From positions 1 to 16,694 of the IMG/VR virus record IMGVR_UViG_2563366825_000009: 16,694 nt of DNA; one strand, given 5' to 3'. Below, piece by piece: positions 13,767 through 15,570 of the stretch; position 1 is the first letter of the stretch, and the number at the start of each line of letters is the position of its first letter. The notes beneath the pieces were generated by a model. It worked only from the letters and a program-made list of their open reading frames with translations. It was not told the origin of the DNA and searched no databases. This stretch comes from a virus (Duplodnaviria > Heunggongvirae > Uroviricota > Caudoviricetes). The translations under genes were made by a program, and so were the position numbers.

Positions 13767-14443
13767 CACCAGAAATTATTCTCCAGCGAACTGGCGTGGA
13801 TATTACCAGCCTCGACCAGGGCGATGATGGATGGCACAAGCTGAGACTCGGTGTTATCACTGCTTCAGAAGTTCACAACGTCATAGCCAAACCACGTTCA
13901 GGCAGCAAATGGCCTGATACAAAAATGTCATACTTCCACACCCTGCTGGCTGAAGTTTGTACTGGCGTGGCACCGGAAGTTAACGCTAAGTCGCTCGCAT
14001 GGGGAAAGCAATACGAAGATGATGCCCGTGCCCTCTTCGAATTTATCGCGGATGTTACCGTCTCGGAAACGCCAATAATTTTTCGTGACGAAAGCATGCG
14101 CACCGCCTGCTCTCCCGATGGTTTATGCAGTGACGGTAACGGTCTTGAGCTTAAATGCCCTTTTACTTCCCGCGACTTCATGAAATTCCGGCTTGGCGGC
14201 TTTGACGCTATCAAGCCTGCTTACATGGCCCAGGTGCAATTCAGCATGTGGGTTACAGACAAGGACGCCTGGTACTTCGCCAACTACGACCCACGTATGA
14301 AGCGTGAAGGCCTGCATTATGTCGTGGTCGAGCGGGATGAAAAGTACATGGCGAATTTTGACGAGATGGTGCCGGAGTTCATCGAAAAAATGGACGAGGC
14401 ACTGGCTGAAATTGGTTTTGTATATGGGGAGCAATGGCAATGA
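13763..14443 (+). CDS. exo: Lambda-type exonuclease (Exo/Red-alpha), 226 aa
   Basis: Near-identical over the full length to lambda Exo as recalled ([47 protein letters not shown]...[20 protein letters not shown]...[10 protein letters not shown]). Confidence 0.95.
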
Positions 14444-14598
14444 AGCATCCTCACGATAATATCCGGGTAGGCGCGATCACTTTCGTCTACTCCGTTACAA
14501 AGCGAGGCTGGGTATTTCCCGGCCTTTCTGTTATCCGAAATCCGCTGAAAGCACAGCGGCTGGCTGAGGAGATAAATAATAAACGGGAGAGTGTATGA
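14440..14598 (+). CDS. Small hypothetical protein (52 aa) translationally coupled between exo and the DpdA-like gene
   Basis: Manual translation [52 protein letters not shown]. Its ATG overlaps the exo stop (ATGA, 14440-14443) and its stop overlaps the next ATG (ATGA, 14595-14598). Below the ORF-track size cutoff. Confidence 0.45.
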
Positions 14599-15347
14599 TT
14601 CATTTTCACGGTGGTCCAATAACTCCCGATACCTGTGCGTTGAAAGCCTGGAAAGGCAGACACGCATTCATCAGTTTTGCTAATCCAGCTCAGATTGATC
14701 TGGCTTCCGAAGTCACCCAATCATTTGCTCTTGATAATGGTGCATTCACATTCTGGACAAAAAACAAGGCCATAGACTGGAATGAATATTACAGATTTGT
14801 TGAACGCTGGGGTAATCACCCTCGTTTCTCATTCGCGGTTATCCCGGATGTTATCGGCGGAACCAGTGAAGAGAATGACGCCCTGATTGCGGCATGGCCT
14901 CACGGTAAATTTATTGGTGCTCCGGTGTGGCACATGAACGAACCAGATGAGCGATTTATTCGTCTGTGCCATGAGTTTCCCCGCGTCTGCATCGGCTCGA
15001 TGGGGGAATACGATGCAAAACGACCGAGAGCGTGTCGGGCTAAACTACGCGATCTTATACGTCATGTTGTAGATCAGTACGGCTACCCAATCACCAAGAT
15101 TCATGGGTTACGGATGTTAAATAAAGACATTTTTACTCATGTACCGCTTTCGTCTGCAGACAGCACGAACGTCGCAAGAAATATAGGCATCGACAAATCC
15201 TGGGTAGGTTCGCCATATGCTCCCGCAAGTAAAGAAACCCGTACGCAAGTTCTTGTGGAACGCATTGAATCATTCAACAGTGCCAGTTCACTTAATTACA
15301 ACGCTGAACGGGACGTCTTTACCCCTCAACTGGCATTCGAAGTGTGA
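14595..15347 (+). CDS. TGT-superfamily protein lacking the zinc subdomain; DpdA-like DNA transglycosylase candidate (250 aa)
   Basis: Co-linear matches to recalled tRNA-guanine transglycosylase motifs: ALDNGAF (cf. LTDSGGFQ), IPDVIGG, CIGSMGEY (cf. GGLAVGE), KIHGL (cf. LMGVG), SADSTNVARN (cf. MFDCVMPTRNARNG). The protein ends at about 250 aa with no CxCxxC..H zinc motif. Confidence 0.5.
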   Translation: MIHFHGGPITPDTCALKAWKGRHAFISFANPAQIDLASEVTQSFALDNGAFTFWTKNKAIDWNEYYRFVERWGNHPRFSFAVIPDVIGGTSEENDALIAAWPHGKFIGAPVWHMNEPDERFIRLCHEFPRVCIGSMGEYDAKRPRACRAKLRDLIRHVVDQYGYPITKIHGLRMLNKDIFTHVPLSSADSTNVARNIGIDKSWVGSPYAPASKETRTQVLVERIESFNSASSLNYNAERDVFTPQLAFEV

Positions 15348-15354
15348 GGCCAAT

Positions 15355-15570
15355 ATGACAATAGAACATAATAACGCCCTTCGCAGCATTGCCCGTCAGG
15401 CTAATTCTGAAATCAAAAAAGCCAGACAGCAGTTTCCGGATAAAAACGTCGATGACATTTGCCGTAGTGTACTGAAGAAGCACCGCGAAACGGTAACGCT
15501 GATGGGATTCACACCGACTCACTTAAGTCTGGCAATCGGTATGTTAAACGGCGTCTTTAAGGAACGGTGA
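15355..15570 (+). CDS. Hypothetical protein (71 aa)
   Basis: ATG at 15355 with a GAGG-type Shine-Dalgarno upstream, 8 nt after the DpdA-like stop; followed by an intrinsic terminator. The track ORF 15217..15570 overlaps the previous gene and was shortened. Confidence 0.5.
   Translation: MTIEHNNALRSIARQANSEIKKARQQFPDKNVDDICRSVLKKHRETVTLMGFTPTHLSLAIGMLNGVFKER

Follow-up and report, generated by a model that had tools for sequence, protein, structure and literature searches.

The 16,694-nt stretch of DNA analysed here in full (the window; positions 1–16,694 of the tailed-phage record IMGVR_UViG_2563366825_000009, Caudoviricetes) carries a 250-codon open reading frame (ORF) on the + strand at 14595–15347. 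An original prediction, made from the sequence alone, proposed that this ORF encodes a DpdA-like enzyme of the tRNA-guanine transglycosylase (TGT) superfamily and is a candidate for 7-deazaguanine modification of DNA. Judged by its genes, the window covers the immunity and early genes of a lambdoid (lambda-like) E. coli prophage, and the dpdA-like gene is assigned to its early-left (pL-type) operon, in the dispensable part that runs from the recombination genes to xis/int and serves lambdoid phages as a site for accessory genes. The features around the gene are the following.

12747–13766, + strand: recT (PF03837, phrog_148; recT and exo matched phrog_148 and phrog_149)
13763–14443, + strand: exo (PF09588), in the same early-left transcription unit as recT
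14440–14598, + strand: orf60a-like gene for a 52-aa DUF1317 protein (PF07026, E 2e-33; phrog_1998), with an alternative ATG at 14434
14595–15347, + strand: dpdA-like gene, an uninterrupted 250-codon frame for a 250-aa protein with a predicted TIM-barrel fold
15355–15570, + strand: orf61-like gene, 71 aa (phrog_303, E 1e-34)
15591–15609, + strand: intrinsic-terminator-like hairpin after orf61 (8-bp stem, 3-nt loop) with a T-run to 15617 (TTTTATTATT tail)

The junctions are as originally described: the exo stop codon overlaps the start of the 52-codon ORF in an ATGA at 14440–14443, the stop codon of that ORF overlaps the dpdA start in another ATGA at 14595–14598 (with GGGAG 6 nt upstream), and the 71-codon ORF and the terminator follow. 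A 117-codon ORF at 15217–15570 on the + strand, named gp33 by RefSeq in phage SfI, overlaps the 3' end of dpdA by 131 nt. This longer form is probably over-extended, the 71-codon start at 15355 being favoured by the PGAP annotation of E. coli L73 and by the PHROG match (profile positions 23–93). No ORF in the window matched FolE, QueD, QueE or QueC, as had been stated, and the window also yielded no ParB-like DpdB gene and no CD-NTase or QueC-like (Cap9) gene.

Relationship to phage DpdA proteins

The 250-aa protein matched phrog_887 ('queuine tRNA-ribosyltransferase') with an E-value of 2e-99, and the experimentally validated DpdA of phage 9g matched the same family at E 2e-98. When a profile built from 89 diverse family members was compared by hhalign, it aligned with 9g DpdA (98.3% probability, E 2.3e-14) and with the DpdA of mycobacteriophage Rinkes (98.4% probability, E 6.4e-15), whose gene is embedded in a folE-dpdA-queC-queD-queE-folE operon. 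These alignments pair LDNGAF with LDSGAF in 9g and IDSGAY in Rinkes, PVWH with PCFH and PVWH, KIHGL with KVHGF and ELHGL, and SADST with SCDSS and SVDSA, respectively. Pairwise BLASTP aligned the protein with the DpdAs of Pantoea phage MED16 (39% identity, E 2e-47) and Salmonella phage 7-11 (35% identity, E 1e-36), both with every motif kept. Furthermore, tblastn found matches in the genomes of Salmonella phage 7-11, HK106, BTP1, SPN3UB and many Vibrio phages, as well as in mycobacteriophage genes annotated as DpdA-like, and in phages Knocker and BUCT006 the window protein and 9g DpdA, each used as a query, picked out the same genes.

The co-linear motifs from which the original prediction was made are all present in the protein: ALDNGAF (residues 45–51), IPDVIGG (83–89), CIGSMGEY (132–139), KIHGL (168–172) and SADSTNVARN (187–196). 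The series does not arise by chance, as the family numbers 6182 homologues when clustered at 90%, or 1764 clusters at 50% identity, and the motif residues are invariant or nearly so across them. Over positions 14434–15570 the DNA shares 99.3% identity with phage SfI and 99.9% with PhiR5_1. SfI gp34 (YP_009147480; RefSeq label queuine tRNA-ribosyltransferase), whose gene occupies the same slot after exo and DUF1317, matches the window protein at 99.6% amino-acid identity. Hutinet et al. 2019 list YP_009147480 as a DpdA in their Supplementary Data 1, alongside HK106 and Athena1, and place the gamma-proteobacterial singleton DpdAs in a separate similarity cluster. Taken together, the phrog_887 match, the hhalign alignments to 9g and Rinkes, the predicted fold described below and the presence of the SfI orthologue in the Hutinet 2019 list bear out the DpdA-like, TGT-superfamily identity, and on sequence evidence the product of 14595–15347 is classed among the "singleton" DpdAs of gamma-proteobacterial phages. 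The novelty implied by the original prediction was not borne out: the family, including the near-identical SfI orthologue, is already published (Hutinet 2019), and the gene adds no new kind of system.

The window protein shares with the singleton phage DpdAs ('group 3' of Hutinet 2019: SfI gp34, HK106 gp29, 7-11 and MED16 gp38) a length in the range of about 230–270 aa, the absence of a zinc site and the absence of que genes. Phages 7-11 and MED16 are virulent, whereas the window copy belongs to a temperate lambdoid prophage with a RecT/Exo module; MED16 dpdA lies near DNA methyltransferases, as do many prophage homologues. The DpdA1 enzymes of phages with a full pathway (9g, CAjan, Rosebush and Rinkes type) fall in phrog_887, align with the family by hhalign at a probability of at least 98%, lack the TGT zinc motif as the family does, and have the motifs LD(N/S)GA(F/Y), (L/P)D(V/G)IG, P(V/C)(W/F)H, HG(L/F) and (A/C/V)DS(T/S/A) in common with it. 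In contrast to the 250-aa window protein, they are 290–317 aa long with extra N- and C-terminal segments. Their genes lie in folE/queD/queE/queC or gat-queC operons and they replace 25–32% of G, whereas no pathway genes are found near the gene studied here.

Predicted fold and active site

An AlphaFold2 (AF2) model calculated from a 45-sequence alignment predicts a (beta/alpha)8 barrel (mean pLDDT 80.6, pTM 0.81). In the model, residues D47, D85, H113, G134, H170 and D189 lie at, or no more than about 3 residues past, the C-terminal ends of successive predicted strands, so that the protein would form a (beta/alpha)8 TIM barrel with its active site at the C-terminal face, the arrangement of the TGT superfamily. 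A Foldseek search of the PDB was uninformative. The same program found 28 matches at E<=1e-3 in BFVD, a set of viral predicted structures; those with names were nearly all phage 'queuine tRNA-ribosyltransferase' entries, and a Vibrio phage nt-1 protein was also present.

To measure conservation we used 69 sequences that included 9g and Rinkes DpdA, as well as an 89-sequence version. D47, H170, D189 and S190 were invariant in the 69 sequences, and H5, A50, P84, D85, I87, N94, P110, V111, H113, G134, L172, P184 and S187 were conserved in at least 90%. Invariant D47 and D189 together with D85 (98% over 69–89 diverse members) would correspond to the three active-site aspartates of the TGT superfamily. 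Of the two catalytic aspartates named in the original prediction, D47 proved correct, but the residue given as D188 is in fact D189. The codons of the putative active-site residues are as follows.

14733–14735, + strand: D47 (LDNGAF), predicted general acid/base; aligns with LDSGAF of 9g
14847–14849, + strand: D85 (IPDVIGG), 98% conserved; putative equivalent of bacterial DpdA D130; the motif reads ALDVIGD in Rinkes DpdA
14931–14933, + strand: H113 (PVWH), 97% conserved; candidate equivalent of bacterial DpdA H181
15102–15104, + strand: H170 (KIHGL), invariant; predicted to hydrogen-bond to the nucleophile, as Cap10 H226 and the TGT Tyr do
15159–15161, + strand: D189 (SADST), invariant; predicted catalytic nucleophile; aligns with 9g D215 (SCDSS)

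Bacterial DpdA uses D95 as general acid/base and D256 as nucleophile, stacks F99 on the base and recognises the base through D130 and H181; the mutations D95A and D256A abolish activity. In Cap10 the nucleophile D248 is held by H226. The putative counterpart of D47 in bacterial DpdA is D95, F99 lying at the same +4 spacing as F51, and in E. coli Tgt it is in the DSGGF motif. For the nucleophile, residues 156–218 of 9g DpdA aligned weakly (E 0.02) with positions 200–259 of the bacterial DpdA hidden Markov model (HMM), which contain D256. The D47/F51 spacing, D85, H113, H170 and D189 appear to fit the scheme of bacterial DpdA and Cap10, with equivalences that we infer through a chain of alignments.

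The original prediction further held that the protein stops before the position of the TGT zinc subdomain and that this is the architecture of DpdA enzymes. The zinc site (CXCX2C...H) is indeed missing, since no Cys is conserved across the family and neither Cys nor His occurs after residue 182 of the protein, but the protein is not short by length, as 61 residues follow D189. Likewise, the lack of zinc ligands is a feature of phage DpdA1 (9g DpdA has no CxCxxC either) but not of bacterial DpdA, which keeps both a CXCX2CX22H site and the large insertion Ins8, each reported to be conserved in that family. At the other end of the protein, the motif IH(F/Y)HGGPIT (residues 1–11, 14595–14627) is strongly conserved in the short family (H5 92%, G6 87%); it lies outside the part that can be aligned to 9g DpdA, and its residues 6–11 are modelled at pLDDT <50.

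Gene neighbourhood and distribution

The genes on either side of dpdA are core lambdoid genes, orf60a (DUF1317) and orf61, and they are found without it. About 175 lambdoid or Shiga toxin (Stx) phages match the query only in the orf60a/orf61 flanks and not in the dpdA part. VT2-Sakai has the order exo-orf60a-orf63-orf61-ea22 and no dpdA, and in PhiR30_1, which also has no dpdA, the slot between orf60a and orf61 holds a gene for a Dam-type N6-adenine methyltransferase (L002:3161–3718). From this comparison of gene orders, dpdA is placed in the orf63 slot of lambda. Conversely, when we examined the best 80 loci of the 582 IMG/VR contigs that encode a relative, counting neighbours over 78 of them, an orf60a-like gene lay immediately 5' of dpdA in 37/78. 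An orf61-like gene lay 3' of it in 28/78, all of which carry an allele at least 99% identical, and immediately downstream in 0/54 divergent loci (85–91% identical). The homologue of the P22-like phage BTP1, 68% identical, has neither flanking gene, and the homologues of BTP1, HK106, Aeromonas, Providencia and MED16 have other neighbours, with different recombinases or none.

These results bear on the proposal that the orf60a-like, dpdA-like and orf61-like genes form one cassette of three uncharacterised proteins, mechanistically coupled to exo/recT. The ATGA overlaps linking exo, the 52-codon ORF and dpdA, the terminator placed after orf61 and the DUF1317-dpdA-orf61 order in all 28 IMG/VR loci with the at least 99% identical allele speak for such a unit. 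The order is confined to that allele, however, and the flanks alone in about 175 phages, the orf63 or Dam methyltransferase gene found between them elsewhere, the 0/54 count for orf61 beside the 85–91% identical genes and the varied surroundings of the remaining homologues all speak against it. Translational overlap, for its part, is the norm in lambdoid early operons. We therefore consider a cassette of this kind very unlikely. Because the flanks occur without dpdA and its homologues have other neighbours, dpdA is better described, from gene context, as a single-gene mobile module whose recurrent companions are DNA methyltransferases rather than orf60a/orf61 or exo/recT. In 21/54 loci an MT-A70 methyltransferase gene lies directly 3' of the 85–91% identical homologue with a 13-nt overlap (PF05063, E 3.9e-24; for example L060:10737–11417), and MT-A70, Dam or N6-adenine methyltransferases are often near the homologue in MED16, Aeromonas, Providencia and other contexts. 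This recurrence suggests a 'DNA-modification corner' in the early operons of temperate phages.

No que genes were detected by tblastn within +/-10 kb of dpdA in any of the 80 related IMG/VR loci. In Caulobacter phage DMCA (L007:5705–6726), the gene for a 241-aa homologue (40% identity) is directly adjoined at its start by a 98-aa QueD/PTPS-like ORF. This ORF scores 22.5 bits against PF01242 (cut-off 22.4) and is the only pathway gene found beside a member of the short family.

The gene is present in 100 of 5426 complete E. coli genomes, in all 100 of which PGAP labels the product 'hypothetical'. A 1719-bp GenBank entry, OR850331.1 ('Staphylococcus phage SA 1298 Kay'), contains a homologue that scores exactly like those of Salmonella P22-like phages (68% identity), and is probably mislabelled or a contaminant sequence. 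The order recT-exo-DUF1317-dpdA-orf61-traR is common to most of the at least 99% identical IMG/VR loci; in E. coli L73 and SfI the same dpdA allele is paired with bet/gam instead of the recT arrangement. Among the complete E. coli genomes of the collection, none carries 80% or more of window positions 10400–16694 at a single locus. The comparison of these loci shows modular shuffling around one fixed dpdA allele.

Elsewhere in the window, profile scans and repeat structure identified the following features.

window, - strand: Q, NinG, DUF1367, primase, helicase and Cro genes (profile scans)
5953–6666, + strand: cI (profile scans)
6896–7198, + strand: C-terminal remnant of a BsuBI/PstI-type restriction endonuclease (PF06616, E 1e-38; phrog_1639 positions 740–838 of 838)
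about 7877–10428: IS21-family element, with istA at 8055–9596 (+ strand) and istB at 9608–10357 (+ strand)
after the IS21 element, + strand, in order: genes for an Ant-like antirepressor, Kil, a Gam-like protein, RecT, Exo, DUF1317, the DpdA-like protein, the orf61-like protein and a TraR/DksA-like protein

Directly 3' of cI, only about 100 C-terminal amino acids of the restriction endonuclease remain at 6896–7198; the segment looks like the truncated leftover of a prophage-borne restriction gene, in the position of lambda rexAB. The IS21 element sits in the early-left region, between cI with the endonuclease remnant and the ant/kil/gam/recT/exo/dpdA genes, and its ends are imperfect, reiterated terminal inverted repeats at 7877–7954 and 10376–10428. 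No N gene was recognised in the window.

Proposed function and competing interpretations

We think it likely that the gene product is a 'singleton' phage DpdA, a TGT-superfamily DNA-guanine transglycosylase that stands alone; it would be made from the early-left operon and would use host preQ0 or ADG. Reasoning from bacterial DpdA and TGT, we expect the enzyme to flip a target dG out of double-stranded DNA once the prophage is induced or a cell infected; D189, held by H170, would then attack C1' to give a covalent enzyme-DNA intermediate while D47 protonates the leaving guanine. The incoming 7-deazaguanine would be preQ0, or possibly its amide ADG, from the host FolE/QueD/QueE/QueC pathway; D85 and H113 would read this base, which would then resolve the intermediate. 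Dependence on host queuosine precursors, as originally suggested, is the published expectation for the 'DpdA-only' group 3, and 9g DpdA expressed alone in E. coli provides a precedent, inserting dPreQ0 from the host pool at 790 per 10^6 nt. Mycobacteriophage Orion, whose host lacks a preQ0 pathway, shows no modification.

The product would probably be a sparse, motif-specific dPreQ0 or dADG mark at roughly 0.02–0.3% of G rather than bulk replacement. This expectation is drawn by analogy from the two singleton-DpdA phages that have been analysed and from 9g DpdA produced by itself. The two phages, each encoding only dpdA, carry dADG at 50 per 10^6 nt (7-11) and 354 per 10^6 nt (MED16); among singletons the modification has been measured for these two only. 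Presumably the gene is a moron whose modification of DNA helps the phage escape some nuclease-based defence of the host, analogous to the methyltransferases found in or beside the same slot. The idea of a defence gene expressed in the lysogen was dropped, as the gene lies in the early-left operon, is co-directional with recT/exo and has no promoter-like site just upstream.

Several observations weigh against this assignment. None of 69 family members, 9g DpdA included, matched the Pfam TGT model PF01702 at E<=1, and the PADLOC DpdA models did not match the window protein; Pfam, NCBIfam and PADLOC scans of the protein as a whole also gave no match, so that at the profile level the original prediction was upheld for the phage DpdA family (phrog_887, hhalign) but not for PF01702 or PADLOC DpdA. 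Searches of PDB sequences by phmmer/HMM, with the single protein and with two family alignments, found nothing, and hhalign gave the family profile a probability of only 1.4% against E. coli Tgt. None of these sequence searches linked the family directly to canonical TGT or to bacterial DpdA. The best structural match was Cap10, at 11% identity, which acts on a protein-linked deazaguanine and not on DNA, and the window protein lacks the zinc site as well as the DNA-binding insertion Ins8 seen in bacterial DpdA. Furthermore, Hutinet 2019 noted that singleton DpdAs may have functionally diverged, MED16, the one singleton-DpdA phage examined for it, was not measurably shielded by its dADG from the restriction enzymes tried, so that an anti-restriction role is presumptive, and we found no paper in the literature testing function in the SfI/lambdoid subtype. 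Finally, the IS21 element upstream in the operon of this prophage may be polar or lower expression of the downstream genes. The negative sequence searches against TGT, bacterial DpdA and Cap10 nevertheless say little about function, because the validated 9g DpdA fails the same tests. The PADLOC bacterial DpdA HMM scored E. coli Tgt at 2e-8 and 9g DpdA at a weak 0.02. In the literature, a probability of 99.18% is reported for MED16 DpdA against T. maritima TGT (2ASH) by HHpred.

The protein might instead be a functionally diverged TGT-fold enzyme that has kept the deazaguanine/guanine pocket and the Asp nucleophile but has a target other than the guanine of phage DNA with preQ0. It could, for example, act like Cap10 on a protein-linked 7-deazaguanine, as in interference with type IV cyclic-oligonucleotide-based anti-phage signalling (CBASS), or be a hydrolytic DNA glycosylase, or use a different host base. 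The H170/D189 pair mirrors H226/D248 of Cap10, which is also the top structural match to a protein without zinc or Ins8 elements. The divergence flagged by Hutinet 2019 for the gamma-proteobacterial singleton cluster, the dADG rather than the expected dPreQ0 found in tested singletons (at a very low level and with no measurable restriction protection) and the conserved N-terminal IH(F/Y)HGG without counterpart in the aligned part of 9g DpdA would all be consistent with such an enzyme. However, the partners of Cap10 (PDB 9NTN) in its defence operon are a CD-NTase, whose NDG-modified N-terminus it binds, and Cap9, and neither hallmark of that operon, a CD-NTase with an M(G/S)G(G/S)GG tail or Cap9, is present in the window; none was seen in five other contexts, and no CD-NTase or QueC-like Cap9 gene occurs in any related locus examined. 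The resemblance to Cap10 is limited to the fold, with no detectable sequence relationship, whereas the sequence is similar to that of phage DpdAs including validated ones. Relatives 35–39% identical come from phages with 7-deazaguanine DNA in which dpdA is the sole pathway gene, and linkage to DNA methyltransferases points to a DNA substrate. On balance a diverged enzyme, although the strongest competing reading, seems unlikely. A broader form of the idea, that the singleton DpdAs (no zinc site, no Ins8, temperate phages) are a diverged branch rather than simple preQ0 inserters, strikes us as quite unlikely; they would either place ADG or another host base at rare motifs as an epigenetic mark together with adjacent MT-A70/Dam methyltransferases, or act like Cap10 on a non-DNA 7-deazaguanine conjugate against a defence such as type IV CBASS.

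A tRNA-guanine transglycosylase acting on host or phage tRNA to raise or change its queuosine modification would be in keeping with the 'queuine tRNA-ribosyltransferase' label of phrog_887, but we regard it as extremely improbable. Unlike the bacterial TGT and arcTGT enzymes (PF01702), the window protein gives no HMM or hhalign signal, has no zinc subdomain, N-terminal beta-sheet lid or tRNA-binding insertions, and is 250 aa long versus 375 aa for E. coli Tgt; its predicted substrate is DNA. The dpdA of phage 9g, a homologue, fails to complement an E. coli tgt mutant, and no tRNA genes were noticed nearby, although no tRNA scan was made. The bacterial DpdA of the Dpd system (S. Montevideo, PDB 7UI4) is also a different machine: at 413 aa it has Ins1–3, Ins8 and a CXCX2CX22H zinc site, none of which is in the window protein, and it requires the DpdB ATPase and sits in an 11-gene defence island, neither of which is found here.

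In its genomic contexts the gene behaves as a swappable moron, alternating with or lying beside DNA methyltransferases. 7-Deazaguanine DNA modification is one phage route to evade restriction and other defences that target nucleic acids, and a putative one-gene version of it, which would rely on the host queuosine-precursor pathway, is common in temperate enterobacterial phages.

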